64,000 nucleotides of DNA, from the UHGV virus genome UHGV-1430452; one strand, given 5' to 3'. The notes beneath the pieces are model-generated. The model was not told where the DNA came from. It did not search any database and saw only the letters and a list, made by a program, of their open reading frames with translations. Position numbers and translations under genes: made by a program. Shown here piece after piece: positions 42-47,041 of the stretch. Source of the stretch: a virus. Within the stretch, counting starts at the first letter, position 1, and each line of letters begins with the position of its first letter.

Positions 42-302
42 TTAGAAAATAAATGGAATATCCTTTTTTACTTTTTTATAAATTCCTAAAGGATTCAACT
101 CAATTATTTCGTCAATCGCTCTTTCAATCTCTTCATCTTCTTCTTTCTGAGACATATCATCTGTAAGAACAGCAATACGTGCCAGATAGCCACATGTGTT
201 ATAACCTTTCTCTTCATCGAATCTTCTCCAAGAAGTGAAGTCATCGATCGGATCGAAAGGATTGTCCATTGTAGTCAACATGACTTTACTTTCTGTCATC
301 AC
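42..302 (-). CDS. hypothetical protein (86 aa)
   Basis: minus-strand ORF 3 nt downstream of the RNAP-like gene. Confidence 0.65.
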   Translation of the reverse strand: MMTESKVMLTTMDNPFDPIDDFTSWRRFDEEKGYNTCGYLARIAVLTDDMSQKEEDEEIERAIDEIIELNPLGIYKKVKKDIPFIF

Positions 303-304: not shown

Positions 305-3300
305 TTACTTCACTCCTTTCAAATACTTAGATACTGTCGATGTAGAAACTCCCATCTTCTTAGCAATCTGTTCAAGTGTATAGTTAGATGCAGCCATTGC
401 TTTAGCTCTACTAACTTGTGCACTGCTTAGACTGTTGGTTAGTCTAGGAGTTGCTCGTTCTCTAAGGTTATCGATGTCTGTTGTGTTAAGGATTCTCTTA
501 AGCTGATTCTCACTAACAGCACCAGCTTGTATAGCTTCCCATTCTTTGTCACTGATCTCTATGTTACGATCTCTTCTAGAGATAGAGCCAACCTCTTGTC
601 TATACTTATTCAACGCCTGTTGGCTAAGCTTTCTCAACGGTTCTCCTTTAAGCTCTTCACCATGTTCTTCAAGGTAAGCCTTCTTCTTAGCTGCTATCTC
701 GGAATTAGCTTTTCGTTGAGCAGTTCTTTCTTTAATCTTATTGAGATCTGACTTATCGACTCTCTCCATTAAAGACTTAACCTCATCTCTATACGCAGCC
801 TTAGCACTTGCTGTTGTTTCGATCTTTCCTGTGTTAGCCATAGCTAATCTAGCTTTGTTACCAAGAGCTTTCATCTCATTAGCGTAGTCCGCATAGATAA
901 GTTCCATAGGATGTCTAGCTTTAGATACTAATTTATAAGCATCATCAGTCTCAGCCATCTTAGTACTTTGCTGCATACGGGTTTTAGTACGATATGTAAT
1001 ATCACCAGCGGCATTAGTATAGGTTACTTTCCCAGTGACGGGGTCTTTTTTCTCAATAGGGTTATACCTTTCGTAAGCTGCCTTATCTTTGGGATCATAT
1101 TCAATCTTCTTGCCATCAGCTGTTCGCACGGTAATAAGACCGGTCTTCTTATCTCGTTTTCTATCGACATAATATAGATCGTCGGCCTTCTTCCAAAGCT
1201 TGGCTCCATCTGGTTTGGTGGGGTCATAATCTTTACTACCTGGGATGTTTATTTTATATGAGCCTTGTCTTTTCTCAACTGAATATTGTCCCTTTGATCT
1301 TGATAAAATGGTAGAAGCTCCACCTGATCTTTCATTTCCGTCATCGTCAATACGAACCTGATACTTCTTTTTAAGTGCAGCAATATTGTTATCTATCTCA
1401 CTTTGTTTGTAATCAAGATGATGTTTCTCAGCATCAATAACAACCATGCTATGCTTAACTGCTCTTGCCAATTCTTTTTCATCAGCTCCAGCTAAAGTCA
1501 TATCAGTAATAAGATTGGATACAACACCCATCTGAGTTCCAGTGTTTTTCATGATGGGATATGCTTTTCCATTACGATAATAACGAACATTACCATCTGC
1601 ATCCTTCTTAGCAACACCACCATATTCAACCTTAGGATCAAATCCTTCAAGATCTTCAAGAGGTCGCTTATTAAGAATTTTTACCTTTCCACCTGGATCA
1701 TTGGTAGGAATACACATAACAGTATCGCCATCAAAGTCTGCACCTGAAAGCTGATCAGCAATCTTATGATTAATGCCGACTGCATCGATACTTTGTTTGC
1801 CAATTATTTTATCTCCCAGTGGATTCTTATTGTTAACTGTTAAGATAGGAATTTCAAATCGTCCGCCATGAGGATAACGAATAAGAGCGAGCTTAGTTCC
1901 ACTCTCGTAGTTTGGAGCATATACTTCATTGTCTTTTAAAGAGTTTATTGGAATAATAACGTGGTACTTCTGTCCAGGTAACGCTGCTGCTTTTAAATGT
2001 ACAGCCGCTGCATCGCAGCTATCTGCAAATTTCTCAAGCATATGTTTCTTAATAGTAGGATTAGTAATAGACATATACTCATCAAACTCAGCAAACTTAT
2101 CTTTCTTAGCAAGATCTAACTGTTTCTTAGCTAGAGTCTGTGACTGTTTAGCCAGGAACTGAGATGGTAATGCGTCCTGCCAATCATCCCAATCTCCTTC
2201 ATCGGATCTCTTATTAATGAGACCTAATTTCTTCTTACCGGTCTTAGGATCGTCATACCAATACTGTCCACCCTTGTCAGCATCTTTTATAAGAGAGCCA
2301 AATGGATTGTCTGGATCATCTTTCTTAATATTTTTAAGAACCGTACTTGTTTTATCGCCTAAAGCTGGAGTACCTTTTTTCTTATTCGTATTAAATATGA
2401 CATCTACTCCATCAGGCATGTTGTCAGAATATACTGCCATACCTTTAAGATAATGAGTTCCATCTACAAGAATACGAACCTGTGAATATCGTGAATCACC
2501 GAGATCAAGATCTTTACATCCTCTGCGAAGTTCAATGATACCGTCCTTATCAATACCCTTAAATCCATCAGCACCGACATCGTCTGCATATCGAACCATT
2601 AAACGTTTTGAATCAAGACTTGCAGGATATGTAAACTTCTTCTGGAATGTATCTCCTCCGTCTATTGATTCATAATCGTTAATTGTCTTTACTCTATCGT
2701 AGTCGTAGATTTCTTTATGTGCCGTTCCTGGTTTACAAAGAACTTTCTGGATGGTCTGTTGTCCTTTTGTATTTATCTGAGGAATACCACCAGTATACAC
2801 AGGATAACCTTCTGCTTTCTGTAAGTAATCAAGAGCAGTATTCAATCGTTCTTTGGATATGCCAAGAGATTTTTCAACACCAGCTGTTACATCGATCATA
2901 CCTTTTTGATCAACATGCTCTCGCAGAAAATCTACAGTCTCCATTGCCTGATGCATACGGTCTTCAGACTTAGGATTAAGAAGAGACCTTACTGTGGACT
3001 CTGGAATACCCATTTCTCTACCGATGGCAGTTGCTCCAAGTCCATCTTCTTTTAAAGATTTAGCTCTAGCTACCTGTTGTAATCTTTCTTCATAACCAGC
3101 CCAACTAATCTGCCTTCTATATTCTGTAGTTGTTAAGTCCATGGATTTAGCTATCGCATTATCTCCGGTCCAGGTCTTACCATTATCATCAGTGTAAGTA
3201 AAACCGGCTTTCTTAAGCTCTTTAACTCTTGCGAGGAAATCGGAACCATGTTGGTATCTATCTTTTCCACTTCCATAAGGATACCTACCGCTGCGGCGAG

Positions 3301-3475
3301 GCATACCATAATGCATAAGTTCATCTTCATTCGCGCTGTCTAAGCGATCAGACCAACCAAAATAAGAAAGGATCTCGTCAGCAACGGTGAACTCTTCATC
3401 GCTGTGCTCAAGATCCTCTTCTCCAAATATAGATTCTACAAGTTCGTTCAACGGAGGTTTCTCTAAGAACTCCAT
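305..3475 (-). CDS. large RNA polymerase-like protein (1056 aa): beta-prime-type double-psi beta-barrel motif ADFDGD preceded by IRYPHGGRFEIP; C-terminal HTH
   Basis: ADFDGD hexamer identical to multisubunit RNAP beta-prime NADFDGD; upstream R-x-P-H...F-E-P resembles the beta-prime NRxPTLHR...FEP block; HTH TLEQIAKKMGVSTSTVSKYLKG at C-terminus; start overlaps upstream stop with in-frame GAGGAGG. Confidence 0.85.
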   Translation of the reverse strand: MEFLEKPPLNELVESIFGEEDLEHSDEEFTVADEILSYFGWSDRLDSANEDELMHYGMPRRSGRYPYGSGKDRYQHGSDFLARVKELKKAGFTYTDDNGKTWTGDNAIAKSMDLTTTEYRRQISWAGYEERLQQVARAKSLKEDGLGATAIGREMGIPESTVRSLLNPKSEDRMHQAMETVDFLREHVDQKGMIDVTAGVEKSLGISKERLNTALDYLQKAEGYPVYTGGIPQINTKGQQTIQKVLCKPGTAHKEIYDYDRVKTINDYESIDGGDTFQKKFTYPASLDSKRLMVRYADDVGADGFKGIDKDGIIELRRGCKDLDLGDSRYSQVRILVDGTHYLKGMAVYSDNMPDGVDVIFNTNKKKGTPALGDKTSTVLKNIKKDDPDNPFGSLIKDADKGGQYWYDDPKTGKKKLGLINKRSDEGDWDDWQDALPSQFLAKQSQTLAKKQLDLAKKDKFAEFDEYMSITNPTIKKHMLEKFADSCDAAAVHLKAAALPGQKYHVIIPINSLKDNEVYAPNYESGTKLALIRYPHGGRFEIPILTVNNKNPLGDKIIGKQSIDAVGINHKIADQLSGADFDGDTVMCIPTNDPGGKVKILNKRPLEDLEGFDPKVEYGGVAKKDADGNVRYYRNGKAYPIMKNTGTQMGVVSNLITDMTLAGADEKELARAVKHSMVVIDAEKHHLDYKQSEIDNNIAALKKKYQVRIDDDGNERSGGASTILSRSKGQYSVEKRQGSYKINIPGSKDYDPTKPDGAKLWKKADDLYYVDRKRDKKTGLITVRTADGKKIEYDPKDKAAYERYNPIEKKDPVTGKVTYTNAAGDITYRTKTRMQQSTKMAETDDAYKLVSKARHPMELIYADYANEMKALGNKARLAMANTGKIETTASAKAAYRDEVKSLMERVDKSDLNKIKERTAQRKANSEIAAKKKAYLEEHGEELKGEPLRKLSQQALNKYRQEVGSISRRDRNIEISDKEWEAIQAGAVSENQLKRILNTTDIDNLRERATPRLTNSLSSAQVSRAKAMAASNYTLEQIAKKMGVSTSTVSKYLKGVK

Positions 3476-3478
3476 TCA

Positions 3479-4105
3479 TCACACCTCCTCGTTCATTCGC
3501 TCCAATGTTTTGCTATGCTGAATAATCGCATCCATTACAGGAAGGATTTCTTCTGCTGTAGGATTGTGGAATATAACTTCGTCGTTCTGGTAGATTCGCA
3601 ATTCAGTTTCAATCTCTCCAGGTTTGACTTTATACTCCAAACAAAAAAGAGCCGCATACACAAGTAGCTGCTCCATCTTCGCCGGAATTATACCGGACTT
3701 ATAATCATGTATTCTTAAGAAATTATTTCGGAATGAAATGGCATCTGCTGTACCGAAACAGTAATCAGAGTAATATAAGATCTGTTCCGGTGTTAACTTA
3801 AACCCAATTGCGTCATTAACGTAGGTCATAAAGTTACTGTAAATACGATCCATGTCTATAACATTTCTTGGGATACCGTCATTAAGTAGATGGGACAGTA
3901 CAGTTAACTTATCACCTTTCTTGAGTTTTAAGTTGTTGGATATTAATGTTTCAGCCAACTCGTGAAGCGATGTTCCCATGCTCTGCGCATAACCGCTAGC
4001 ATATTTCTGATAAAGCTGCTCTTCGGTATATCGCAACCAGTGAGGTTGGCTAGGAGCCAGGAAAGCATGTTTACCTCGCAGATTCAAATGCTTTTCGAAA
4101 ATCAT
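3479..4105 (-). CDS. PD-(D/E)XK nuclease, RecB/YqaJ/Cas4-like exonuclease fold
   Basis: HDYKSG...QLLVYAAL matches the D-x-K...Q-x-x-x-Y core of RecB-family nucleases; no C-terminal Cys cluster. Confidence 0.7.
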   Translation of the reverse strand: MIFEKHLNLRGKHAFLAPSQPHWLRYTEEQLYQKYASGYAQSMGTSLHELAETLISNNLKLKKGDKLTVLSHLLNDGIPRNVIDMDRIYSNFMTYVNDAIGFKLTPEQILYYSDYCFGTADAISFRNNFLRIHDYKSGIIPAKMEQLLVYAALFCLEYKVKPGEIETELRIYQNDEVIFHNPTAEEILPVMDAIIQHSKTLERMNEEV

Positions 4106-4119
4106 TTAATGGTTCCTCC

Positions 4120-4410
4120 TTATTTGTTAAATGTTTTTCTGAGATCGTCCAGGACTTGGTCCTTGTTCTCAGGAAATATAAATGCTGAGTGTGACATCTC
4201 ATTCATTTTATCTACATAGTAATCCTGATTTGGCTGATGTTTTGCCGTAGCGCTCTTCTTCACTTCTAATGCGCACCATTTATCTTTGTAGAGAACTAAT
4301 AAGTCCGGAACTCCCTGTAAATATGTTGGATCATTTTTCAGGACCATACATCCTGGGAATTCTTTCTTAAGCTCTTTGATAAGTTTTGCTTGAAATTTGT
4401 TCTCTAACAT
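4120..4410 (-). CDS. VRR-NUC domain nuclease
   Basis: GVPDLLVLYKDKWCALEVKK carries the PD...E-V-K VRR-NUC signature. Confidence 0.75.
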   Translation of the reverse strand: MLENKFQAKLIKELKKEFPGCMVLKNDPTYLQGVPDLLVLYKDKWCALEVKKSATAKHQPNQDYYVDKMNEMSHSAFIFPENKDQVLDDLRKTFNK

Positions 4411-4437
4411 ATGTATTGCCTCCTCACGTAAATCACA

Positions 4438-4511
4438 TGGACCCTCTGGGATTCGAACCCAGGACCGTCCGGTTATGAGCCGGATGCTCTAACCAACTGA
4501 ACTAAAGGTCC
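4438..4511 (-). tRNA. tRNA-Met (anticodon CAT), 74 nt, CCA not encoded
   Basis: hand-folded cloverleaf: acceptor GGACCTT/AGGGTCC, D-loop AGTTGGTTA, anticodon stem TCCGG/CCGGA with loop CTCATAA, T-loop TTCGAAT. Confidence 0.85.
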
Positions 4512-4530
4512 GCCTATTATAAAGAAAAGA

Positions 4531-4733
4531 GAAAAATAGACTTTTCTCTCATAAAAGGGCAAGAAAATTTCGTGAATAGGGTGTGTACTTTTATATGTAA
4601 ATTTAGATAAGACCGGGAGCCATGAAGGACATCCCGGTACGTTCCAAAAATATAAATAGAAAGAAAATAGACCATCTCTCTATAAAAGGGTCAGAAATTT
4701 TCGTGAATAGGGTGTGTACTTTTTATATGTAAA
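4531..4733. repeat. two copies of a ~72-bp direct repeat (4531..4603 and 4663..4733), each containing a variant promoter-like motif (ctcataaaaggg...ttcgtgaata) and separated by a 7-bp-arm hairpin
   Basis: near-identical strings read directly; hairpin ACCGGGA-N13-TCCCGGT between copies. Confidence 0.8.
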
Positions 4734-4757
4734 TATCAATAAATGAGATCGTATGTA

Positions 4758-5195
4758 TTAATCTATAGCTTCAAAGTGTAGACCTTTCGTATTGTTGTAG
4801 AAATCGTAGTTACAGCATTTACTTATTGTGGCTTCGTTCATTCCTATAGCTTTACTGCATTCCCTGATAGATTCATAAACTTCTCCAGTTTCCACAATAC
4901 GAATCTTTTTATTGCATCGCCTCCTTTCCAAATTATCAATTCTATTGTTACGTTTGTTACCATCGATATAACCGACACATGGTTTTCCTGGTTCTTCATC
5001 AAGAAATGCGTCAGCCACTAGTCGACCAACGCGCTTTGTTATTCTTCTGCCGTTCTCCTTGACCTTCACTGTTTCGTAACCCTTGTTATCAAGGCATGGA
5101 GTAAGTATTCTTCCAGTCTTTGAGTTCCTAACTCTTCCTTCGCTGCTTACCTCATATCCTTCAGCAATATTACTATCGATCCATTGTTCTTCCAT
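4758..5195 (-). CDS. HNH endonuclease paralog with degenerate HNH motif
   Basis: NUMOD4-like YEVSSEGRVRN N-terminus; HNH region GYIDGNKRNNRIDNLE lacks the His residues seen in the neighbouring paralog. Confidence 0.65.
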   Translation of the reverse strand: MEEQWIDSNIAEGYEVSSEGRVRNSKTGRILTPCLDNKGYETVKVKENGRRITKRVGRLVADAFLDEEPGKPCVGYIDGNKRNNRIDNLERRRCNKKIRIVETGEVYESIRECSKAIGMNEATISKCCNYDFYNNTKGLHFEAID

Positions 5196-5206
5196 CGATA
5201 ACCTCC

Positions 5207-5713
5207 TTATTCTACTTTCTCAAACGTGTAACCTCCGCAAGTTCTCAATCTTCCTCGTAAATACTGTGACAACATACTTTGACTTATCCCAAGCGTTTTA
5301 GCACATTCGTTCAAAGATTCATATACCTCTCCGTTCTCTTTACATCTAACTTTTATTCGATTACTTCTACCACCACCATATGGTTTCATCAATCCATCTC
5401 GTATGGCGTATTGCACATTTTCTTTTCTTGTACACCATTCAAGATTATCTGCGTGGTTATTTGTTTTATCTCCATCTTTGTGATGAACATCTAGACCTGG
5501 ATAAGGTCCGCCTAGAAATGCTTCGGCCACGAGAATATTAACTCTCTTTTGAAACCCATATCCGCATCTAGATAATGTTACAGTTTTATAACCTTTGCTG
5601 TCAGTTCCTTGTTTTAGAATTCTTCTAGTATCGATATTCCTAACCTTGCCAGTATTACTAACTTCATATTGCGAACCAAAATCATGCACCGCCTCCCATT
5701 CTTCAACTTTCAT
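5207..5713 (-). CDS. HNH homing endonuclease (NUMOD4 + HNH_3-type)
   Basis: YEVSNTGKVRN and HHKDGDKTNNHADNLEW motifs. Confidence 0.8.
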   Translation of the reverse strand: MKVEEWEAVHDFGSQYEVSNTGKVRNIDTRRILKQGTDSKGYKTVTLSRCGYGFQKRVNILVAEAFLGGPYPGLDVHHKDGDKTNNHADNLEWCTRKENVQYAIRDGLMKPYGGGRSNRIKVRCKENGEVYESLNECAKTLGISQSMLSQYLRGRLRTCGGYTFEKVE

Positions 5714-5920
5714 ATAGCCGTTCTCTTCTAACCATTGACAATAATCATAAAATCATCCTTCTTTCTTATACTCTTTCCATTGCTCCAATGGACTCTTTTC
5801 TTCGAAATCATCAAACTCGTCGTACTCGTCATACATAAACGCATTCTCCTTTCTAAATTTGTTTTAATATAAGTTCGAAAACAAAAGAAGAGGTTGAAAA
5901 TATCAATCTCATCTTTCTTT

Positions 5921-5948
5921 CTATAATAGGGCGTGTAATTTTCGCGAG
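5921..5948 (-). promoter_or_regulatory. conserved promoter-like motif copy
   Basis: plus-strand ctataatagggcgtgtaattttcgcga; family consensus. Confidence 0.55.
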
Positions 5949-6022
5949 CCGACTTATCTTATATCAAGATTCGTAGACAAAAAGAAGAGGCCGGGAATCA
6001 ATCCCGAAACCTCCTCATTCTG

Positions 6023-6406: not shown

Positions 6407-6447
6407 AGTTTTGTTCTCCTTTCGACTTAAACAATTTTGTTTATTTG

Positions 6448-6474
6448 CATAATAGGAGTTGTTTATTTAGCGTA
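6448..6474 (-). promoter_or_regulatory. conserved promoter-like motif copy
   Basis: cataataggagttgtttatttagcg about 40 nt upstream of start at 6406. Confidence 0.55.
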
Positions 6475-6508
6475 AAAAAAAGGAAAGCCCAAGTCGTTTT
6501 GACCTGGG
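6474..6508 (-). terminator. rho-independent terminator
   Basis: minus-strand hairpin GACCCAGGUC-loop-GACUUGGG followed by U9 tract. Confidence 0.7.
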
Positions 6509-7027: not shown

Positions 7028-7060
7028 AAATATACCCCTTTCTTTAAATAAACTATTTTT

Positions 7061-7088
7061 CTATAAAGGGAGATGTTTATTTAGCGAG
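7061..7088 (-). promoter_or_regulatory. conserved promoter-like motif copy
   Basis: ctataaagggagatgtttatttagcgag. Confidence 0.55.
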
Positions 7089-7529
7089 TTAATCCATGTT
7101 CACTAATTCGTGAATTGAACATTTCAATGCTCTCGCCATTTTTATCAGATTACGAGAATTCGGAGTGGCTAGACCGTTTGTGTATTTACTTATCGTAACC
7201 TGAGTGACACCTATCTTTTCAGCTAATCGATCTTGTGTCATAGCTACGTTTCTCATTTTCCGATTTAGATTACGAGCAAATATCTTTCTCCATTCTTCTT
7301 CTGAAATGTCAATTGAATCTTCGTTGCCTGGATCATGAATCAGATAGGCTTGTCTATTAAGAAAATCATAAGCATACTTTTTACCGCCTTTGATCTTTAC
7401 CGTGATCTCTAATTGTGCACTAGGATACCAATCTAACATTTCTTCCGCTAGATTAGGATAATCCTGACAAAATGCTTCATATACGGGTTTCCAATATTTT
7501 TTACCGTCATTCATCTTAAGTCCCTCCAT
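7089..7529 (-). CDS. XRE-family HTH DNA-binding protein (146 aa)
   Basis: C-terminal HTH QDRLAEKIGVTQVTISKYTNG. Confidence 0.75.
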   Translation of the reverse strand: MEGLKMNDGKKYWKPVYEAFCQDYPNLAEEMLDWYPSAQLEITVKIKGGKKYAYDFLNRQAYLIHDPGNEDSIDISEEEWRKIFARNLNRKMRNVAMTQDRLAEKIGVTQVTISKYTNGLATPNSRNLIKMARALKCSIHELVNMD

Positions 7530-7542
7530 TTCTTAAAGATTG

Positions 7543-7971
7543 AATTATGTGCAGACCGAAATTCGTGAAAAATAAAAAAAATACATTTTTAAATTAATAT
7601 ACAACTACTTTATACTTTGGTTATATAACTAAAGTATAAAGTTACCTTACAACAATATATAAAGAAAAAATTATTTTTTACGAATTATGTGCAGACCGAA
7701 ATTCATTTTTACCGTTTTTAGGGCCAAAATGACCGAAAATAGCCAATTTAGCCCCATTTTTGACGAAAAGTGCCGAATTATTAGCAGACCAAAAATAATT
7801 ATTAGCAGACCAAAATTCTATTTTACCATCATTTTCTTATTTATTAGCAGACCAAAAATACCATTTTCCTATTTATTAGCAGACCGAAATTCGGAATTAT
7901 TAGCAGACCAAAAATAGCAAAAACTGAATTATTAGCAGACCAAAAATAATTATTAGCAGACCAAAATTCGG
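7543..7971. repeat. iteron array: 9 copies of a ~20-bp direct repeat (A)ATTATTAGCAGACCAAAA(T), variants ATTATGTGCAGACCGAAATTCG, irregular spacing
   Basis: copies near 7543, 7683, 7776, 7797, 7837, 7871, 7895, 7927, 7949; flanked by HTH and RHH genes. Confidence 0.85.
7607..7642. promoter_or_regulatory. 12-bp-arm perfect palindrome ACTTTATACTTT-N12-AAAGTATAAAGT upstream of the HTH gene; operator-like
   Basis: inverted repeat read directly. Confidence 0.6.
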
Positions 7972-7977: not shown

Positions 7978-8262
7978 TTACACATAATCGTCCTCATCTA
8001 TGTCGTCTTCATACTCAAATTCATCATTATAATCGTCACTACCAGATCCATATAACTCTTTTAAAGCTTCTTGACGTTTGTTAATACTATCGATAGATGC
8101 TTTATATGTACTGATTCTGATAAACTCCGACATAGACATTCCGCTAAGTCTAGCTGCCCTCTCTATAGACGAATACTCCTCGTCATTGCATTTAGAGAAA
8201 ATAGGTTTTCTTCTCGCTCCAAACTTCAACGGCCTCCCACGTTTCTTTTTAACTTCTTCCAT
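7978..8262 (-). CDS. ribbon-helix-helix (CopG/MobC-like) DNA-binding protein with acidic tail
   Basis: KRGRPLKFGARRKPIFSKCNDEEYSSIERAARLSGMSMSEFIR resembles RHH family; paralogs at 9504 and 12151. Confidence 0.65.
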   Translation of the reverse strand: MEEVKKKRGRPLKFGARRKPIFSKCNDEEYSSIERAARLSGMSMSEFIRISTYKASIDSINKRQEALKELYGSGSDDYNDEFEYEDDIDEDDYV

Positions 8263-9843: not shown

Positions 9844-9874
9844 ATAGATCCCTCCTTTCTATTTGGTTTCTTTT

Positions 9875-9902
9875 CATAATAGGCGTTGTTAATATCACGA
9901 AA
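9875..9902 (-). promoter_or_regulatory. conserved promoter-like motif copy
   Basis: cataataggcgttgttaatatcacgaa. Confidence 0.5.
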
Positions 9903-9928
9903 GAAAAAGAGAGAAGAAGTATATCTCA

Positions 9929-10052: not shown

Positions 10053-10072
10053 ATCAACTTTTATTCTTCTCT

Positions 10073-10100
10073 CATAATATAAAATGTATTTTTCGCGAAT
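10073..10100 (-). promoter_or_regulatory. conserved promoter-like motif copy, directly after a terminator-like hairpin
   Basis: cataatataaaatgtatttttcgcgaa. Confidence 0.5.
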
Positions 10101-10134
10101 AAAAAGAAGAGGCTGTAAAAGCCCCTTACTTGTT

Positions 10135-10518: not shown

Positions 10519-10551
10519 ATCAAATACCTCCTTTAGAAATTAATAGTTTTT

Positions 10552-10577
10552 CATAAAGGGGTATGTAATTTACGCGA
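10552..10577 (-). promoter_or_regulatory. conserved promoter-like motif copy
   Basis: cataaaggggtatgtaatttacgcga. Confidence 0.55.
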
Positions 10578-10595
10578 TCACAAAAACCTCAAATA

Positions 10596-17394: not shown

Positions 17395-17418
17395 ACTTTT
17401 ATCCTCCTTAATATCTTT

Positions 17419-17448
17419 CTATAAAGAAGAATGTTTACTTCGCGAATA
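17419..17448 (-). promoter_or_regulatory. conserved promoter-like motif copy
   Basis: ctataaagaagaatgtttacttcgcgaata. Confidence 0.55.
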
Positions 17449-17573
17449 CGGTCTTCTATAGAAACGTTCTTTCACTTTTTCTTCATGATCTTCATTTGCA
17501 AATTTGCTATATCGTATCGATTTGTTTTTAGATATATCTTCTCTCATGAAACGCTTATCTTTATATTCTTTTG

Positions 17574-18171: not shown

Positions 18172-18199
18172 AAATTTGTTCTCCTTTTTACTGTATTTT

Positions 18200-18229
18200 C
18201 TATAAAGGAGTTTGTTTTATCCGCGAATA
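18200..18229 (-). promoter_or_regulatory. conserved promoter-like motif copy
   Basis: ctataaaggagtttgttttatccgcgaata. Confidence 0.55.
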
Positions 18230-18577
18230 TAACGCGAGCCGTGGAGAATGTTTCTTACGCGTACCATCTACTAACAGATTCATACACATCTACAAGTTCC
18301 TCGTAACCTAGTAGTCTAAGAAAATCACAAAGAATATCATCGGCATTCTCATGATCTTCTTCCGGATTCCCGGTAAAACAGTTGCATTTAATTCGCTCAA
18401 TTACTTCTGCTTCGTCAATCACAGTAAGTCCTCCTTTCTATTCATCCAATTCAAAATCGTCACATGCAGACTGATCAGGTGATACGTCAGTATAAGATCT
18501 ACGGCAATAATGTTCGCCAGTAGCCATATTGTATCGACAGTGCTTGCAATCTAAGCATTCATAGTATTTTTCATCAT

Positions 18578-20845: not shown

Positions 20846-20982
20846 TTTCCAAGAATAAGAATAGAGTTGCGCAAATCTAATGCCTTCGCGAGGGGGCGGC
20901 TTTTACACCGAGGACAGTCGCAACATTAGATATCTCTATCCTAAGCATAACTAATCCCTATCCATTTAATTATGCAGTTTCT
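20846..20982 (-). ncRNA. candidate small non-coding RNA: promoter-like motif, ~135-nt GC-rich structured segment, then terminator
   Basis: only micro-ORFs; 8-bp inverted repeat ATCTAATG/CATTAGAT encloses a GC-rich core; bounded by motif 20983..21009 and terminator 20803..20845. Confidence 0.4.
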
Positions 20983-21009
20983 CATAATAGGAATTGTATT
21001 TATCGCGAA
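20983..21009 (-). promoter_or_regulatory. conserved promoter-like motif copy
   Basis: cataataggaattgtatttatcgcgaa. Confidence 0.55.
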
Positions 21010-21010
21010 T

Positions 21011-21036
21011 AAAGAAAAGCCCCGGATAGAGGGCTT
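21011..21036 (-). terminator. terminator hairpin immediately upstream of promoter motif
   Basis: stem AAGCCC/GGGCUU then UUCUUU. Confidence 0.5.
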
Positions 21037-21398: not shown

Positions 21399-21433
21399 AA
21401 TAAATACCTCCTTTAAATAACTTTAATGATTTC

Positions 21434-21460
21434 CATTAAAGGAGATGTTTACGACGCGAG
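21434..21460 (-). promoter_or_regulatory. conserved promoter-like motif copy
   Basis: cattaaaggagatgtttacgacgcgag; near-identical to copy at 22006. Confidence 0.55.
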
Positions 21461-21524
21461 ATTAACACTTTTAGAAAAAGAAACAAAAAGAAAGACCCCA
21501 GCATTTCTGCCAGAGTCTATCTCT

Positions 21525-21998
21525 TTAAATATAGTCCAATATGTTTCCATCCACATTGAAGTCTAATAATGCCGTATTCTTATAACCATTGATAAAATCG
21601 AAATTACATTCATTCATTAAACCAAAATCTACGAAATTGTCTCCAATAGGATTCTCCTCGTCATAAACCCAGCCAACAACTGCTCCTGCTTTTGTTCTCG
21701 GAATGCCTAACGTATCGTAGACATCATTCAGAAATAAATGTCCTCTTGATCTCAGCAAAACATTACAATATTTCTGCTGATCTTTCAAAAAGTTCATATT
21801 ATACTCTGGATCTTTAATCCACCCAATACAGCTATCATCGAAAAACCTAGCATATTGACTAAAGTTTTCGGTTTTGTCAACCCTGTTTCCTGGATACTCT
21901 TCTTCTGATTTCAGATTGAATAATTTCTTTAATTCCTCATCATCAATTTCAATAGTTACATTAATCTTCATAATTATTCTCCTTTCAAATATAAACAT
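21525..21998 (-). CDS. hypothetical protein (157 aa) sharing a ~110-aa domain with the C-terminus of 44029..44967
   Basis: FFDDSCIGWIKDPEYNMNFLKDQQKY...GDNFVDFG...LLDFNVDGNIL aligns by eye with 44029 C-terminus. Confidence 0.7.
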   Translation of the reverse strand: MFIFERRIIMKINVTIEIDDEELKKLFNLKSEEEYPGNRVDKTENFSQYARFFDDSCIGWIKDPEYNMNFLKDQQKYCNVLLRSRGHLFLNDVYDTLGIPRTKAGAVVGWVYDEENPIGDNFVDFGLMNECNFDFINGYKNTALLDFNVDGNILDYI

Positions 21999-22005
21999 AT
22001 TGTTT

Positions 22006-22032
22006 CATTAAAGGAGATGTTTACGACGCGAG
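22006..22032 (-). promoter_or_regulatory. conserved promoter-like motif copy
   Basis: cattaaaggagatgtttacgacgcgag. Confidence 0.55.
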
Positions 22033-22136
22033 TTATTTATGAAAGCCGATATCGCCGGCAATAGCAAATAAACCAGCAGCTATAATTAATGCAGGTTCAC
22101 TTGTCGCAAGATACAAAAATATTAATATTCCAGAAA

Positions 22137-24099: not shown

Positions 24100-24147
24100 A
24101 ATCTGTTTCTCCTTTCATTGTTTGAATTTAACTTTTATGTATAGTTT

Positions 24148-24174
24148 CATAATAGCAAGTGCGAATATCGCGAA
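24148..24174 (-). promoter_or_regulatory. conserved promoter-like motif copy
   Basis: cataatagcaagtgcgaatatcgcgaa. Confidence 0.5.
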
Positions 24175-24215
24175 TTTTTATGAGCGTGTATTTGATATGT
24201 ATTTTGCGCGAAATA

Positions 24216-27740: not shown

Positions 27741-27759
27741 TTTAACTACTACTCTCTCT

Positions 27760-27784
27760 CATAATAGGTGTTGTAAATTTCGCG
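27760..27784 (-). promoter_or_regulatory. conserved promoter-like motif copy, ~225 nt upstream of vWA gene start
   Basis: cataataggtgttgtaaatttcgcg. Confidence 0.55.
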
Positions 27785-27787
27785 TCT

Positions 27788-27967
27788 CTAGACAAGTACA
27801 TACAACTGTCTTCCGTTCACAACACCACAAGCCTCAAGTTTTCCATAAGCCTTCAAAGTGTCTAAACCGTACTTACCAACCAGACTCACAATATAATCCT
27901 CGTAAATTGAATCCAGTCCTTCGCAGTCTTTCTTTATGATCTCGTAAACAGATTCTTCGTATGTCAT
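27788..27967 (-). CDS. small hypothetical protein (59 aa)
   Basis: missed by track; ATG with SD-like AAAGGGG. Confidence 0.45.
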   Translation of the reverse strand: MTYEESVYEIIKKDCEGLDSIYEDYIVSLVGKYGLDTLKAYGKLEACGVVNGRQLYVLV

Positions 27968-33917: not shown

Positions 33918-33952
33918 TTCAATTCCTCCTTTAATAAAAAAATGTTTTATTT

Positions 33953-33977
33953 CATTAAAGTAGATGTTTTTTACGCG
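33953..33977 (-). promoter_or_regulatory. conserved promoter-like motif copy
   Basis: cattaaagtagatgttttttacgcg. Confidence 0.5.
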
Positions 33978-34235
33978 TTATTTCCTAATAAACTGTCCAC
34001 ATGATCCGCAATAATGATCATACTCAGCTGTAGGTATTGGTGCCTCGCATGTCGGACATAATTTAAGAGATCCCTGGTCTGGATCGTCCGCCACTCGATA
34101 TTTTAATTCACTAACTACTTCTGTAAAAAGATCGGCGTTAGGTCCACCGTTTTTAATTTCCAAATCTCTAAGTTCTCTCATTCTATTTACAATATTGATT
34201 ACTCTCTGATTTCTTTCTTCTAAATATTTTTTCAT
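33978..34235 (-). CDS. zinc-ribbon protein (85 aa)
   Basis: CPTC...CGSC. Confidence 0.6.
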   Translation of the reverse strand: MKKYLEERNQRVINIVNRMRELRDLEIKNGGPNADLFTEVVSELKYRVADDPDQGSLKLCPTCEAPIPTAEYDHYCGSCGQFIRK

Positions 34236-35976: not shown

Positions 35977-36012
35977 TTTAAGTTCCTCCTTTAAGAAATA
36001 TAGACTTCATTC

Positions 36013-36037
36013 CATTAAAGGCGATGTTTATGTCGCG
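36013..36037 (-). promoter_or_regulatory. conserved promoter-like motif copy
   Basis: cattaaaggcgatgtttatgtcgcg. Confidence 0.55.
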
Positions 36038-36039
36038 TA

Positions 36040-36369
36040 TTATCTATTTTTCTTACCGTAAGCGGAATAATCCCTACGCTTTGGAGTTACTGGTGCTTCT
36101 GGTTTTTCCGGACTTTCTTCCACCACCTCAACAGCATCGACGGGAGTGTCTGGCTTCTCTTCTTTTTTGACTTCTCCGTATGCGCTGCTAGTCTCGACTT
36201 TCTTACCGTTAACTCTTTTCTTCCATTCACAATCAAACTCTTCATCGATGCCAGACTTGTAAGAAAACGTGCAAATATACTCCTGTCCTGTTTTTGAATC
36301 TGTGTAAATATCACCGATAGCTCCTTCTGTTCTTCTTGTTGGTGCTCCTACTCCTGTTAATTTAGCCAT
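36040..36369 (-). CDS. hypothetical protein (109 aa)
   Basis: co-directional ORF. Confidence 0.65.
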   Translation of the reverse strand: MAKLTGVGAPTRRTEGAIGDIYTDSKTGQEYICTFSYKSGIDEEFDCEWKKRVNGKKVETSSAYGEVKKEEKPDTPVDAVEVVEESPEKPEAPVTPKRRDYSAYGKKNR

Positions 36370-37228: not shown

Positions 37229-37268
37229 GAAAAACAAAAAGAGTCTCAACCATAATCGGTCAAGACTC
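37229..37268 (-). terminator. terminator-like hairpin with U-tract, immediately downstream of a promoter-like motif
   Basis: 9-bp stem GAGUCUUGA/UUGAGACUC then UUUUUGUUUUUC. Confidence 0.55.
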
Positions 37269-37278
37269 CTTATCTCTT

Positions 37279-37304
37279 CATTAAAGCCGTTGTATTTTTC
37301 GCGA
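37279..37304 (-). promoter_or_regulatory. conserved promoter-like motif copy followed by a hairpin (attenuator-like)
   Basis: cattaaagccgttgtatttttcgcga. Confidence 0.45.
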
Positions 37305-37310
37305 TTCGTA

Positions 37311-37601
37311 CTATCGTAAAGATTTTGGGACAAGGCTTTTGATAATCTTTTTCTGATGCTCGTCCAGATCGTGATATAGAGTGAAACCCGTTGCCCCATT
37401 ATACTCATCGCCAAACTGTTTGTAGTACATAGATTGTTTCCATAACTCCGGATACTCTTTTTTGTACTTTGCGAGTTCTTTTGCTTTCTTGTCATACTGT
37501 TTATCCGAAATTATATTATTATCTAACTCGTAATAAATATATGAATGAAGTATGATATATCTTTGCAAGTAATCTATGTATTCGAGGGTTGTTAGTTCCA
37601 T
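37311..37601 (-). CDS. hypothetical protein (96 aa)
   Basis: start overlaps replicase stop; preferred over overlapping ORF 37136..37495. Confidence 0.6.
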   Translation of the reverse strand: MELTTLEYIDYLQRYIILHSYIYYELDNNIISDKQYDKKAKELAKYKKEYPELWKQSMYYKQFGDEYNGATGFTLYHDLDEHQKKIIKSLVPKSLR

Positions 37602-40600
37602 GGCAGCTCTACATCTTCATCATCGAATGGAATTTCCTCAGGAGATCCTTCCGGTATGTTCATGAAGTCTGGTAAATGAGAATCTCTAAAAGGAGGTTCA
37701 TGCCGATCTGAAGCATCCCAAGGCGGAGTACCAACATATGGATCGTCTGATATGAACCACTCAGCGTCTCCGTATTGACCAATAGTTTCAAGAGCATCAT
37801 CCACAAGCTTTCGATAATATGAACGATCAATATTTTCTTCATTTCCCGGAGACATCATTAACTCGGATTCAAGCCAACGGAAACCAGTTGTTCCTGTAGC
37901 TGCATAATATTTACCGTTCTGTTCTCGCATCAATAGTCCTCCACCCTTTCCAGGCTTAACCGGACAAAATTGCCCAACTTTACCTACGAAATGATAGTCA
38001 TGACCTTCAGCTATTAAATCGTTTAATCTTCGACACTCACTTTCGAAAGTTGTGTCCGATAACTTACCTTTCCTGTACTTATCTTCAAGTTTGGATAGTT
38101 CTTTTTCATACTCGGATACATCTGGAAGTTTTTCGTTCATATCCAAATATAAAGCAGATTTTACTGAGAATGCTTCGCACATATCTTTCAACTCAATTGG
38201 TTCTTTACTGAACAGTGTTTTAAATACATACGGAACTGCAAACTGTTTTCCAGTAGCTGTCCATTCTCCGGCATTCTTTCCATCTTTAAACCTAGCCACG
38301 TACACAGCATCATTTACTAAACAGAATTTTTCAAAGTTAGCCTCTGTTTCAAATGTATATCCGTATTCTTTACCGAATTTGGTTACGAAATCAATAATAT
38401 CAGGAGTAGCATCGGGTATCTTTATGGAATCTGTCTTGATATGACAAACAGTAAATCCTCGTTTCTGAACTTCTCTTTTCAATAATGTCATGAAGAGAGC
38501 TCCTCTTTTGGCAACAATGTTATCCTTATTTCTAGGATCTCTAAATTCATTTACGAAGCCAGCTGATGTCAAACCATAAATGGAATTGATAACAATCTTA
38601 AGTGCCTGCGCTAAATCAGCAGCCTGTTCTTCATTTAAGTATGGTTTCAACGCTCCACCTAATAATTGTCCAGCTGTTTCAAAGTCTTTATGCTTAATTG
38701 CAACACGAGCTTTTACAATATCCTCAAACCGTTTTGTATATTCTGGTCCAAATAGACATTCGAATATAATACTGTGAGGATGCTGAGAAGCAATGTCTCC
38801 ATCCCATACATTACCGTAATGCCCAGGTTCAGAGTAAACCCGACCGCCTTCTCCAATGGCTTCGCCTAAATATGTTGATTTACCAAACTCAAAAGTATAG
38901 CCTTTAAAGAATGGAAGAATGCTATAACCTTCTGGAAGCTTTTCGCCAGGAACGTAAGATCGATATAATGGAAGACCCTCAGAATCAAATACTCTGAAAT
39001 CATAATCATCTCCGAATTTAATTCTATATTCATCATAACGATCTGAGCTAACCGGTTCCGCCAAGTATCTATAGTTGAATACATTCTGCGGTTTTTTATT
39101 ATTTCCAAATATAATTCTTTTAGAAAGAGTATTTGTCGTATCATTAACTGTAACGTTTGTAATATCATGTAAGAGTTTTACAAGATCAACCTGAATCTGT
39201 CTAGCAACAAAGTCTGCTTTTCTTGCATTGAATACAGCTTCCGTCGCAATGACATCATTATCGCAATACTCAGCAACCTTTGCCCATAATTCTTCTGGAA
39301 CTGGTTGATCCCAAGGAAGACCAAGCTCTTGATGATGAATACCCAGTTCAATCTCCCATTTCTTTAAACTCTGTTTCACAGTTGACATATCATATACATC
39401 AATGTAACCAAGATTATATGCCTCACCAAACATGCCATTATCACGGCTTCCCTTTGGAGCATTAATAATTCTTTGAGATAACTTATATATTTCCTCATTT
39501 GTGTATCCCATAAGTCTAGCATAAATGATATGTCTGTCGTATTTACGTCCATTAAAATCAACAAGTTTAAACTTTAGAAGATTTTCTATTTCTGCTGGTG
39601 TAGGATTAATTAATCTAACTACTGTTTTTCCTTCTCCAGCAAACTTATAGTTTACCAAAAATAAATTTGGGAATACCTCACAATCATAGAATACAAGATC
39701 GTCAGTATCACCCTCATTACTTGTCTCTGAAGCCTCTTCACTCTTAAACGCCATCTGATTAACTAACTTCAAACACTCATCAGCCTGGTTACTACTACTC
39801 GCCGCCAAAGCAAATACAGCATTTTTCATATCAGACACATCATATCCAATACCACTCTCATAAGCCTCATCCAAAAGTTTCTTAATCATTTGAATACTTG
39901 GAGCTGTGTTACCCATAATTTCTTTATTCAGATGTTTCTTAAGAACGGATCTCAAATATTTCTCATTCTTAATACCATCAAAGTTAATCACATTTTTCAC
40001 CTCTTTCAACGGAAGACCTGAGCTAATTGTACGAATAACAAGATTGACACACTTAGTAAGTTTTCTTCTAAGAGATGTTTTACCGGTAAATACCTTAATC
40101 TCGATATCCTCATCAAATATACGACTTAATTCACTCACATCACCGTTATAAATATAATGAAGATGAATACCTCCACCACTTTTGCTTAACTCAGCATATG
40201 TTGGAGGCCATTTACTAGCTGCTTCAAGATTCTTCTCGAAACATTTATTACCATTCTCGTCCTTAATATCAAAGTCAATAACTACATGATTTTCAGGGAC
40301 CTTGACGTAATGAAGTTTTGATGTGTCAAGTTCTGATAGGGTAGTTGAAACTTCATCCCATGGCTTCGTCGGAGTTTCTTTTGAAGTAGCATATTGAGCT
40401 GGACAATCAGAACATTCTTTATCAAAAATAGACTCCTGTTCTTCAAATATAAGCCAGCTCTCAGTTTTCTCATCTCCAATAGGTTTCTCTGCTTTAACCT
40501 TTTTCTTCCCACCAATAGAGTCTTCGAAAATATCAGTCTTAAAACCGTCGTAATAACTCAGCAGCTTACTTCCATCTTCTTTCTCCACCTTCTCATCAAA

Positions 40601-44028: not shown

Positions 44029-44967
44029 TCAAATCATGTTGAGAATATCCCCATCCACATTGAAATCAAGAAGAATAGTTCTCTCATAACCGTTCACGAA
44101 GTTACGATTTGCCTCGTTGTAAGTGTTATAGATTCCGAAATCTACGAAATTATCACCTACTGGATGTTTCTCGTCATAAATCCATCCAACAATCTGACCT
44201 GCCTGTGTACGCGGGATTCCGAGCATATCATATACTTCATTCAGGAACAGATGACCTTTCGTTTTCAACATGTCATTTGCATAACGCTGCTGATCTTTAA
44301 GGAACATTAGATTGAATTCAGGATCTTTAGTCCATCCTGTACATCCATCATCGAAGAATTTAGCATAATCGCTGTAACTGTCGAGAGTTGCTACATTTGC
44401 TGTTTTCTTAACAGTAGTTTCTGTACCATCTTCATTTACAACAGTCTCTTCGATTTCTTTTGCTTTGATGTTGTACTTCAGTTCTTTATCAAGCTCTTCA
44501 CCAAATCTCTCAATAACACGACCACGATATTCCTTGAAGCCTTTGTCAATAGTTGCATAAGCGGCTGCAAGTGCTAAGTTACGTTTACGAAGAATATGAT
44601 GACCACTAAGAATAGCAGCGATAGAAACTGTTCCAAGGATTACTGCTGGAGCATAAAGTTTTGCTACCTTTACGGCTGTTTGAGTATACATGATAGTTAA
44701 ATCTTTCTTACCATCTTCTTCTGTGTACTCTTTACCTTCTGGAACCATATCTGGATTTTCCATAAATTCATGAATTTTCTCGATTTTTTCTTTTGGCTCA
44801 GCGAGCACCTCATCGAGTTTAGTAGTTGCTTTACATGCCATTACAGCAGAGCCAACTACACCAACAATACCTGCGCCAACCAAGATTTCAGGGCTATGCT
44901 TTTTAAATTTAAAACCTACACGATGGAGGCTTCTAGTTACTGTGTTCATAATTTCTAATTTTGCCAT
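44029..44967 (-). CDS. two-TM-anchored modular protein (312 aa), paralog family A (N-terminal domain shared with 47042 and 49330; C-terminal domain shared with 21525)
   Basis: N-terminal ...PEILVGAGIVGVVGSAVMACKAT... and C-terminal FFDDGCTGWTKDPEFNLMFLKDQQRY blocks. Confidence 0.75.
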   Translation of the reverse strand: MAKLEIMNTVTRSLHRVGFKFKKHSPEILVGAGIVGVVGSAVMACKATTKLDEVLAEPKEKIEKIHEFMENPDMVPEGKEYTEEDGKKDLTIMYTQTAVKVAKLYAPAVILGTVSIAAILSGHHILRKRNLALAAAYATIDKGFKEYRGRVIERFGEELDKELKYNIKAKEIEETVVNEDGTETTVKKTANVATLDSYSDYAKFFDDGCTGWTKDPEFNLMFLKDQQRYANDMLKTKGHLFLNEVYDMLGIPRTQAGQIVGWIYDEKHPVGDNFVDFGIYNTYNEANRNFVNGYERTILLDFNVDGDILNMI

Positions 44968-47036: not shown

Positions 47037-47041
47037 TATGA

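Follow-up and report, generated by a model that had tools for sequence, protein, structure and literature searches.

The window analysed here is a stretch of 64,000 nucleotides from the virus genome UHGV-1430452 (UHGV) and covers most of a temperate siphovirus-like genome. At positions 305–3475 of its minus strand it encodes, from an ATG start, a protein of 1056 residues. This protein is very probably a phage single-chain RNA polymerase (RNAP) of the cellular two-barrel type, as judged from a predicted structure. An initial annotation of the same DNA had proposed both the open reading frame (ORF) and this reading of its product; the former is confirmed and the latter supported, as the predicted fold contains two barrels and the catalytic residues are invariant. 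The gene occurs together with a promoter-like motif of ~30 bp, and the same combination is found in related phages with hosts in two phyla. Gene and motif together suggest a self-contained phage transcription system, an idea of the initial annotation that gains support from this joint occurrence.

Two-barrel fold and catalytic residues

A structural model was predicted with AlphaFold2 from an alignment of 70 sequences (mean pLDDT 85.5, pTM 0.77); only the first ~70 residues are disordered. The initial annotation had suggested a fold comparison, and this returned two-barrel polymerases with QDE-1 ranked first. In the PDB, Foldseek matched QDE-1 (E ~1e-8, probability 1.0), then maize and Arabidopsis RDR2 and, more weakly, Pol IV NRPD1, Pol II Rpb1 and the vaccinia and archaeal largest subunits. 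The fold search of BFVD returned phage proteins named RdRP (RNA-dependent RNA polymerase), crAss-like putative RNAPs and baculovirus LEF-9. The closest structures are QDE-1/RDR proteins and phage single-chain RNAPs, ahead of the multisubunit RNAPs. From this ranking, the protein is therefore placed with the single-chain two-barrel polymerases of the QDE-1/phage clade described by Chaban et al. Both barrels are assigned to one chain, with the β-like barrel N-terminal to the β′-like barrel.

The β′-like double-psi β-barrel is assigned from the predicted model and the alignment to residues ~500–592 (1700–1978, minus strand). Its strands are formed by residues 503–509, 517–519, 528–532, 544–547, 565–568 and 585–590, and it includes R533-Y-P535-H536. 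The catalytic metal-binding loop S577-G-A-D-F-D-G-D584 (DxDGD; 1724–1747, minus strand) aligns with D535-N-D-G-D539 of YonO. The ADFDGD string on which the initial annotation was built corresponds to residues 579–584 of this loop, which is invariant across the alignment apart from F581. The upstream block IRYPHGGRFEIP is located at residues 532–543. Its R533-Y-P535 lies 47 residues before the Asp triad D580-F-D582-G-D584, near the distance of about 40 residues given earlier. An invariant R-x-P ~45 residues before the Asp triad is also present in Rpb1 (R446/P448) and QDE-1 (R962/P964) (PMC2919709).

Conservation was assessed in an alignment of the query with 134 representatives, one for each cluster at 50% identity, which are 44–60% identical to the query. 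Residues R533, P535, D564, S577, G578, A579, D580, D582, G583 and D584 are invariant. Since they are invariant in relatives of only 44–60% identity, the motifs of the catalytic region are no chance strings. The catalytic residues also show no variation among six orthologues whose phages infect Firmicutes or Actinobacteria (Lactococcus, Arthrobacter, Streptomyces and Rhodococcus).

The β-like double-psi β-barrel is assigned from the predicted model and invariant alignment columns to residues ~290–425 (2201–2608, minus strand), with strands at 313–317, 330–337, 341–350, 359–362 and 404–425. Residues Q332, R334, K344, G345 and D358 are invariant and D311, G312 and D322 nearly so. The hallmark of this barrel in other two-barrel polymerases is two invariant basic residues and one Asp (K979/K987/D837 in Rpb2, R738/K743/D709 in QDE-1).

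For a comparison with YonO, a profile was built from a 35-member alignment that started from SPbeta YonO. Invariant residues of the YonO family are D249-G250, R266, K271-G272, R492-x-P494-H495, D535-x-D537-G-D539, G593..S596-N597 and D625..K628. When the β′-like barrels were aligned as sub-profiles, hhalign gave E=0.0016. R533, P535 and H536 pair with R492, P494 and H495 of YonO in the profile alignments. The sub-profiles of the β-like barrels aligned with E=0.058, placing R334 with R266 and K344-G345 with K271-G272, and deliberately mismatched barrel pairs used as controls gave E=0.75 and 0.89. The second barrel, for which the initial annotation had suggested a check for conserved lysines, is counted as present, with R334 and K344 as its invariant basic residues; the equivalence of its catalytic residues to those of YonO is probable, the alignment having an E-value of only 0.058.

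Searches by sequence were less informative. The family profile gave no hhalign signal against the single YonO sequence. For the single protein, the matches listed by Pfam are all to helix-turn-helix (HTH) families and none is to an RNAP or RdRP domain, and a PDB sequence search with the same protein found nothing. With the family profile, the PDB search produced HTH matches only, plus a non-significant match to AR9 β′ at E ~1.

Terminal modules

The C-terminal HTH module comprises residues 1016–1054 (314–430, minus strand) and resembles sigma-70 region 4. In the model it consists of helices 1018–1029, 1034–1041 and 1045–1052. Its assignment in the initial annotation, from TLEQIAKKMGVSTSTVSKYLKG (residues 1033–1054), agrees with Pfam matches above the curated cut-offs to HTH_23 (E=1.2e-7), HTH_38 (E=7.6e-7) and Sigma70_r4 (E=8.1e-7). 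At the other end, residues ~77–191 form an N-terminal helical DNA-binding module with two HTH-like units (2903–3247, minus strand).

This module is preceded by the invariant peptide L53-x-HYG-x-x-R-x-SGRYP(W/Y)GSG70...Q75 (3251–3319, minus strand) in a region predicted to be disordered (pLDDT < 50 at residues 40–70). Residues S62, G63, R64, G68 and G70 are invariant, and the peptide is identical in orthologues of both phyla. It could be a signal for packaging, processing, docking or ejection.

A lineage-specific, β-rich insertion of ~85 residues (aa ~745–830; window ~1000–1240) reads KINIPGSKDYDPTKPDG...VTGKVTYTN. It is missing from the Lactococcus and actinophage orthologues and is modelled confidently as short strands.

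Family membership and distribution

A full-length profile match, HTH modules at both termini and conserved gene order place the protein in the catalogued phrog_4291 / 1706-ORF75 family, so that its kind is already known. Residues 46–1054 match phrog_4291 ('RNA-dependent RNA polymerase') over profile positions 5–907 of 909 (E=0, 1140 bits), and HTH modules flank the protein as in phrog_4291, 1706 ORF75 and the actinophage 'RdRP-HTH' family. By tblastn, 249 GenBank phage records cover at least 80% of the query, with Arthrobacter (95), Gordonia (55), Streptomyces (54) and Lactococcus (13) as hosts, besides Rhodococcus, Faecalibacterium and others. These records name the family 'RNA-dependent RNA polymerase', 'helix-turn-helix DNA-binding protein' or 'hypothetical protein'. 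An exhaustive search yielded 2,258 clusters (50% identity), of which 857 reached E<=1e-30.

The nearest GenBank phage record of the polymerase is MT835495.1, a human faecal phage scaffold of 69.8 kb (79% amino acid identity). A megablast search against GenBank phages detected no close DNA relative. Near-identical relatives of the polymerase were found on Blautia contigs of Mb scale and, because of the size of these contigs, are regarded as prophages.

The family has been predicted to be an RNA polymerase by Koert et al. (2021, bioRxiv 10.1101/842583), who obtained an HHpred match (P=95.7%) to Pfam RdRP from a family alignment. According to the same authors, these phages share only two conserved gene blocks, one of which ends in the polymerase. 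On the biochemistry of the family, the motif and virion proteomics, nothing was found in the searched literature beyond Koert et al. Several relatives of YonO carry PF05183, the Pfam RdRP domain. In all likelihood, 'RNA-dependent RNA polymerase' is a wrong name that the databases derived from remote similarity to PF05183.

Comparison with known polymerases

Named relatives within the clade are QDE-1, YonO and P23-45 gp64. The protein also belongs to the HTH-flanked family of which 1706 ORF75 and the proteins of Arthrobacter, Gordonia, Streptomyces and Rhodococcus siphoviruses are typical. The window protein is of the same kind as 1706 ORF75, the 'putative RNA polymerase' of FP_oengus (Faecalibacterium) and the actinophage proteins annotated as 'RdRP / HTH DNA-binding', with 36–47% end-to-end identity. 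HTH modules at both ends, the catalytic residues and the gene order endonuclease-exonuclease-polymerase-small ORF-genome end are shared with the 1706 ORF75 family. The window protein differs from the 1706 and actinophage proteins by its own insertion of ~85 residues and by its larger (~99 kb), temperate gut phage with integrase and repressor genes.

Like YonO of SPbeta (Forrest et al. 2017, PMC5467207), the window protein is a phage-encoded single polypeptide with the β-like barrel first, and the RxPH, DxDGD, GxxSNxIT and IDxxK blocks are co-linear. YonO, however, ends in a CxxC...CxxC zinc ribbon (C799, C802, C816, C819) and has no HTH modules, whereas the family of the window protein ends in an HTH and does not have this four-Cys ribbon. 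Owing to the marginal similarity, the missing zinc ribbon and the lack of a direct match to PF05183, the window protein is not a close relative of YonO. The YonO promoter and any need for additional factors are described as unknown in the YonO paper (PMC5467207).

The non-virion RNAP of P23-45 (gp64) and P74-26 (gp62) is shorter (~590 versus 1056 residues), carries no HTH modules and has no detectable sequence similarity to the window protein (Chaban et al. 2024, PMC10770324). Expression of P23-45 gp64 depends on a second RNAP, a virion enzyme fused to the tape measure protein (PMC10770324). QDE-1 and plant RDR2 (PF05183) are eukaryotic, have a role in silencing, use RNA templates or both kinds of template and have no HTH modules. 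Crass-like phi14:2 gp66 has ~2,200 residues and a DFDID motif; N4 vRNAP and P23-45 gp96 are other virion RNAPs. T7-type RNAP offers an analogy only. Its ~23-bp promoters are long, conserved, strand-specific and repeated through the genome, and their AT-rich melting block is followed by a purine-rich start (…TATAG/TATAATGAGA). The right-hand, Pol I-like fold of this enzyme is unrelated to the two-barrel fold, and no homology is implied.

A strand-specific promoter-like motif in the window

The motif surfaced by repeat finding and was then refined iteratively as a position weight matrix (PWM). With the PWM, 35 copies were located in the window. All of them are on the coding (minus) strand; the opposite strand has none, and shuffled sequences gave ~0. 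The consensus on the coding strand is tTCGCGAAAAwwACA-N4-CTATTATGAGAA, or TCGCGAAAwwACA-N4-CTATTATGA in its short form. Three conserved blocks (CGC, ACA and CTnTnAT) are spaced ~10 bp apart. The copies precede early or middle genes and tRNAs: each is followed either directly by a tRNA or, after 10–40 nt, by an AGGAGG-type ribosome-binding site (RBS) and ATG.

The pervasive, non-sigma70-like promoter motif of the initial annotation is thereby borne out in number, strand and spacing. The CGCG block lies 14 nt and the ACA block 5 nt from the TATTAT block. A reading as sigma-70 −35 and −10 elements was rejected on this spacing, as 16–18 bp are needed between the hexamers. Near the polymerase gene, sigma-70-type pairs are no more frequent than expected (15 observed, 18.6 expected).

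Two copies of a variant form, TTCACG...TTTCT...CTTTTATGAGAG, occur at 4539–4583 (33.9 bits) and 4670–4714 (27.2 bits); the former is upstream of the operon of tRNA-Met, endonuclease, exonuclease and polymerase. The following copies, all on the minus strand as well, lie at 5911–5955 (39.4 bits), 6437–6481 (41.4 bits, followed by an RBS and ATG), 7051–7095 (39.9), 9864–9908 (41.9), 10062–10106 (37.6), 10541–10585 (40.6), 17409–17453 (33.4), 18190–18234 (29.7), 20972–21016 (44.8), 21423–21467 (34.9), 21995–22039 (33.8), 24137–24181 (27.3), 27749–27793 (34.3), 33942–33986 (27.7), 36002–36046 (37.4), 37268–37312 (32.1) and 47001–47045 (27.0 bits). Further along the arm, copies are found at 48025–48069 (42.9 bits), 48291–48335 (36.4), 49104–49148 (39.9), 50208–50252 (35.9), 50638–50682 (47.2), 50991–51035 (45.8), 51217–51261 (47.2, with 50638–50682 the joint best match), 51530–51574 (43.0), 51723–51767 (34.3), 51965–52009 (29.1), 52563–52607 (38.6), 53029–53073 (39.8), 53513–53557 (31.8), 54169–54213 (31.9) and 54442–54486 (39.4 bits). 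The copy at 54971–55015 (37.1 bits) is the first of the early arm and is located beside the lysogeny module.

The copy at 48025–48069 abuts a tRNA gene, the 5′ end of which follows TATTATG after ~6 nt. With so short a distance, any transcription start would have to be at the 3′ edge of the motif. The tRNA itself (47958–48031, minus strand; Rfam 62 bits), with this copy immediately upstream, is reported by ARAGORN as 'tRNA-???' with the anticodon 'ta'. Its anticodon arm ACAGA-CTTATA-TCTGT has a 6-nt loop, or an 8-nt loop with a 4-bp stem. From its sequence, this may be a tRNA with unusual decoding or of the suppressor type, or one resembling tRNA-Ile(UAU).

The motif in related phages

Six other genomes or genome segments that encode the family were scanned, and the PWM was refined separately for each from a minimal shared seed. 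All six contain a forward-only motif of the same architecture, with no matches on the reverse strand and <=0.1 in shuffled sequences. The motif was found as TCGCgAAAatTACAtnttCTTTTATgaaA in L007 (10 copies), a 98.9-kb metagenomic contig from a relative with 85% identity, as tCGCGtaAATTACAnGGGCTATAATg in Arthrobacter phage Mudcat (~7), as TCGCAnAaAAAACACaCccTATAATGAGACCCCT in Rhodococcus phage ReqiPepy6 (16), as TCGCAAGtTtTnCnnGCntTaTAGTGAGACCCCT in Streptomyces phage Scap1 (6), and in the Lactococcus phages 1706 and P092 as CACAtGTTTTACAtanaCTATAGTAGAAAGAAG (12) and TTTAaGTTTTACATACCCTATAATGAAAgGA (10), respectively. A 49-kb stretch of SPbeta containing yonO, scanned as a control, has no motif copies.

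In each genome, the copies begin at the start of the early arm, right after the tail and lysis genes. The structural modules of the scanned genomes are free of the motif; in the complete Scap1 genome, none is found in 1–22648. A copy is present ahead of the polymerase operon in Mudcat (L005, 45992), Pepy6 (L008, 45792), P092 (L004, 40824) and 1706 (L009, 40453). L007 likewise has a copy upstream of this operon, and the counterparts in the window are those at 4539 and 4670. The motif-bearing genomes span 33–61% GC, with hosts in two phyla. Mudcat has 45% GC and its host 63% GC (Arthrobacter phage survey).

Because motif and gene co-occur across phyla in phages that share few gene blocks, a conserved phage protein would be expected to recognise the motif; given its HTH modules, the polymerase is the foremost candidate. 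The motif is mentioned neither by Koert et al. nor in the Arthrobacter phage survey nor in a 2026 survey of Rhodococcus phages. Accordingly, a family-wide promoter-like motif across phyla appears to be undescribed in the searched literature.

MT835495 was scanned with a degenerate core pattern derived from the window. It contains two convincing copies only (617 and 1205), both upstream of its polymerase gene (2432–5497), and its GC content is 45% compared with 37% in the window. Either this phage has a diverged motif of its own or the polymerase gene has moved between backbones.

Two further observations concern the sequences that follow the motif. In ReqiPepy6 (L008, 12097–21990) and Scap1 (L006, 22648–26872), the motif runs into a near-invariant leader, GAGACCCCTACGAAAGGA. 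As this leader includes the RBS, the whole 5′ untranslated region is conserved between a Rhodococcus and a Streptomyces phage. In P092 (L004, 19976–20060 and 20364–20450), two motif copies are followed by GACTTTAGCTCAGAGGTAGAGCG..., which resembles the 5′ half of a tRNA. ARAGORN called no tRNA anywhere in P092, and by their sequence these sites may be degenerate or non-canonical tRNA-like genes.

Proposed mechanism

By analogy with YonO, gp64 and gp66, the enzyme is likely to be an active DNA-dependent RNAP. It is reasonably probable that it initiates at the motif, and a similar degree of belief is attached to the model as a whole, in which a two-barrel RNAP reads its own ~30-bp promoter and thereby drives the early and middle genes and its own operon. 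As judged from fold and residue conservation, the β-like barrel (R334, K344) and the β′-like barrel (R533-x-P535, D580-x-D582-G-D584) form the active site. The enzyme itself would recognise TCGC(G/A)-N6-(T)TACA-N4-CTATWATGAGA (~30 bp), with the N- and C-terminal HTH modules contacting the two upstream blocks, CGC(G/A) and TTACA. Melting of the AT-rich block would be followed by initiation inside ...TATWATGA or immediately behind it. Early and middle (replication) genes, tRNAs and the operon of the polymerase would be transcribed from the motif, the last of these resulting in positive feedback. The structural genes, which have no motif, would be transcribed by the host RNAP or from the polymerase operon, by read-through past the junction of the genome ends.

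An enzyme that reads the earliest promoters and has its own operon behind the same motif would need a source for its first molecules. Motif copies start at the first early-arm genes in every genome, which is compatible with such a role and no proof of it. One lead, not a finding, is that the virion may carry the enzyme and inject it along with the DNA. ORF75 of 1706 is labelled 'structural protein' in the original deposit (EU081845), in which its neighbours are 'unknown', and was later renamed RdRP in RefSeq. The ReqiPepy6 record describes the orthologue as 'similar to Lactococcus phage 1706_gp75, structural protein'. No other large gene lies between the polymerase gene and cos. In 1706 and P092 the polymerase gene comes directly after that of the endolysin, and in the circular form it is located directly upstream of the packaging and structural genes. 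Late expression would fit this position. Delivery of the enzyme in the virion is nevertheless held only tentatively, with the balance somewhat against it. The most far-reaching version is rather unlikely: a self-sufficient, promoter-specific RNAP with sigma-region-4-like HTHs, its promoter kept from Firmicutes phages to actinophages, that is packaged in the virion and transcribes early genes independently of the host.

Several points weigh against the proposed mechanism. The link between enzyme and motif is one of co-occurrence only, and no activity data for any member of the phrog_4291 family were found in the searched literature. The AT-rich block of the motif is a near-perfect sigma-A −10 hexamer (TATAAT); owing to this resemblance, the host RNAP together with a phage factor could use the sites. 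Without delivery in the virion, another source of the first transcripts is needed. The phage is temperate, with an integrase and a CI-like repressor, and induction of a prophage offers no virion protein. Moreover, the label 'structural protein' of 1706 ORF75 comes from sequence records; the 1706 paper reportedly identified structural proteins by virion mass spectrometry. As to the fold, PF05183 is not among the best 25 of 26 matches at E<=10, and the presumed placement of R334, K344 and D311/D322 opposite the DxDGD loop is based on the fold and residue conservation. The whole-profile hhalign comparison with the 35-member YonO profile is weak (E=0.022, probability 2.2%), but still lines up RxPH, DxDGD, GxxSNxIT and IDxxK in order. 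Because of this weak signal, the assignment relies on the structure and on the sub-profile alignments with mismatched controls.

Alternative explanations

The enzyme might instead be a late, non-virion RNAP in the manner of YonO that transcribes structural and lysis genes only, which it could reach for example by processive read-through of its own operon past the joined ends of the genome. The motif would then be a host sigma-A promoter combined with a site for a phage activator or repressor. YonO does transcribe the late operon of SPbeta from a single start site (PMC5467207), in contrast to the window, where the motif stands before dozens of early and middle genes. The location of the gene at the genome end, upstream of the structural genes in the circle and beside the endolysin gene in 1706 and P092, would suit such a role, as would the AT block, which is TATAAT in several genomes. 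However, the structural modules are devoid of the motif and no other conserved promoter was found there. In addition, CGC(G/A) and TTACA at 14 and 5 nt from the TATAAT-like block are incompatible with a −35 element, and the 30-bp architecture is kept between phages of Actinobacteria and Firmicutes. The polymerase is furthermore the sole conserved regulatory-type protein common to all these phages (Koert et al., bioRxiv 10.1101/842583). A purely late role is thus considered improbable.

Still less probability is given to a DNA-binding regulator or replication enzyme. In this reading, the motif would be bound by the HTH modules, acting as a transcription factor, and the products of the polymerase core would be short RNAs, either primers or regulatory RNAs, and not mRNAs. 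Many GenBank records do say 'helix-turn-helix DNA-binding protein', the gene ends a replication and recombination module beside exonuclease, endonuclease and single-strand annealing protein (SSAP) genes, and QDE-1 makes RNA from single-stranded DNA (PMC9508822). Yet the phage already encodes a primase-polymerase fusion, and the motif copies are placed like promoters, before an RBS and ATG or a tRNA, unlike origins. The closest phage structural relative, gp64/gp62, is a bona fide transcriptase.

That the protein is a true RNA-dependent RNA polymerase, as the PHROG and RefSeq names have it, is very improbable, even though its top structural matches are the RdRPs of RNA interference, QDE-1 and RDR2. 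The name stems from remote similarity to Pfam PF05183, the tested bacterial and phage members (YonO, crAss gp66 and P23-45 gp64) are DNA-dependent, and QDE-1 is dual. For a double-stranded DNA phage with promoter-like motifs in its DNA, an RNA template is not evident. Finally, a Toprim/primase or unrelated acidic-loop fold for ADFDGD, the alternative raised by the initial annotation itself, has a negligible probability, as no such fold appears in the Foldseek PDB or BFVD match lists and no point in its favour was found.

Genome context and synteny

The minus-strand arm of the window (55 kb) contains small early genes, the primase-polymerase fusion, an SSAP, a helicase, an anti-repressor, an anaerobic ribonucleotide reductase activase and HNH endonucleases. 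It ends, in this order, with tRNA-Met, a small endonuclease, an exonuclease, the polymerase and an ORF of 86 residues. The tRNA-Met(CAT) gene (4438–4511, minus strand; ARAGORN, Rfam tRNA 69 bits) has a motif copy immediately upstream and is the first gene of the operon, the end of which holds the polymerase gene. The small endonuclease (phrog_93; 4120–4410, minus strand; E=2.6e-18) is syntenic in Mudcat, Scap1, Pepy6 and 1706. The exonuclease (phrog_3953 / DUF2800; 3479–4105, minus strand; E=4.1e-67) is the upstream neighbour of the polymerase gene in P092, Mudcat, Scap1, Pepy6, 1706 and L007. In the same six, the small conserved ORF (phrog_4303; 42–302, minus strand; E=1.6e-32) has the same position, always after the polymerase gene at the genome end.

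P092, 1706, Mudcat, Scap1 and ReqiPepy6 have the five genes that end the arm in syntenic order at their right genome end. In L007, the polymerase gene ends 256 bp from the end of the contig, and position 1 of the window is therefore probably near a physical terminus. Neither a sigma factor nor further RNAP subunits were found among the ~50 window ORFs scanned (ORFs of at least 90 residues). On the plus strand, genes for a CI-like repressor (56053–56649) and a serine integrase (56726–58312) are present; tail-fibre genes are located at 61–64 kb.

The primase-DNA polymerase fusion of 1408 residues (phrog_4210, E=0; 37592–41818, minus strand) is kept in all the related phages (P092 gp50, 1706 orf55, Mudcat gp58, Scap1 gp42 and Pepy6 gp072). 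Two tandem HNH/NUMOD homing-endonuclease genes (4758–5195 and 5207–5713, minus strand) lie just upstream of the polymerase operon, and such genes recur at the same place in Mudcat (gp80–81), Pepy6 (gp103), Scap1 (gp52) and L007. The early arm contains four phrog_2152 paralogues without an assigned function (21525–21998, 44029–44967, 47042–47869 and 49330–50106, minus strand), two of which are joined by a DNA repeat of 233 nt with 72% identity (21622–21854 and 44135–44367).

A non-coding region at 7526–7969, between the ORFs 7089–7529 (HTH repressor-like) and 7978–8262, contains ~8 direct repeats GAATTAT(T/G)(A/T)GCAGACC(A/G)AAA. Their spacings are 11, 21 and ~100–190 bp (repeat families D10 and D20). 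By sequence, the repeats resemble iterons or operators and may form a replication origin or a regulator array. Within the tail-fibre gene 61271–63703, 9-nt periodic repeats GGTCCTTGTGGTCCAGTA... at 62567–62689 (minus strand) encode a collagen-like Gly-X-Y pattern in the 810-residue tail fibre protein.

Significance

Single-chain two-barrel RNAPs such as YonO, P23-45 gp64 and crAss gp66 serve in research as minimal models for the cellular transcription enzyme, and how they find promoters is largely an open question. The family described here offers a large and diverse set of such enzymes (2,258 clusters), with a well-defined promoter-like motif in multiple copies in the same genome and with candidate recognition modules, the HTHs, on the same polypeptide. 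The motif, together with the hint of a virion protein, turns an annotation curiosity into a directly testable enzyme-promoter system. If the pairing of enzyme and motif is false, what is left is an ordinary gene of a catalogued family, although its membership is well supported. If it is true, it would provide a compact, host-independent transcription system usable in Gram-positive bacteria and a natural dataset for the co-variation of enzyme and promoter, and the labels 'RNA-dependent RNA polymerase' and 'HTH DNA-binding protein' on ~250 phage genomes would need correcting. Should the enzyme also be packaged in the virion, it would form with its promoter a cellular-type equivalent of T7 RNAP and the T7 promoter. 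It would also add a fourth kind of virion RNAP, of independent evolutionary origin and present in ordinary siphoviruses including temperate gut phages.

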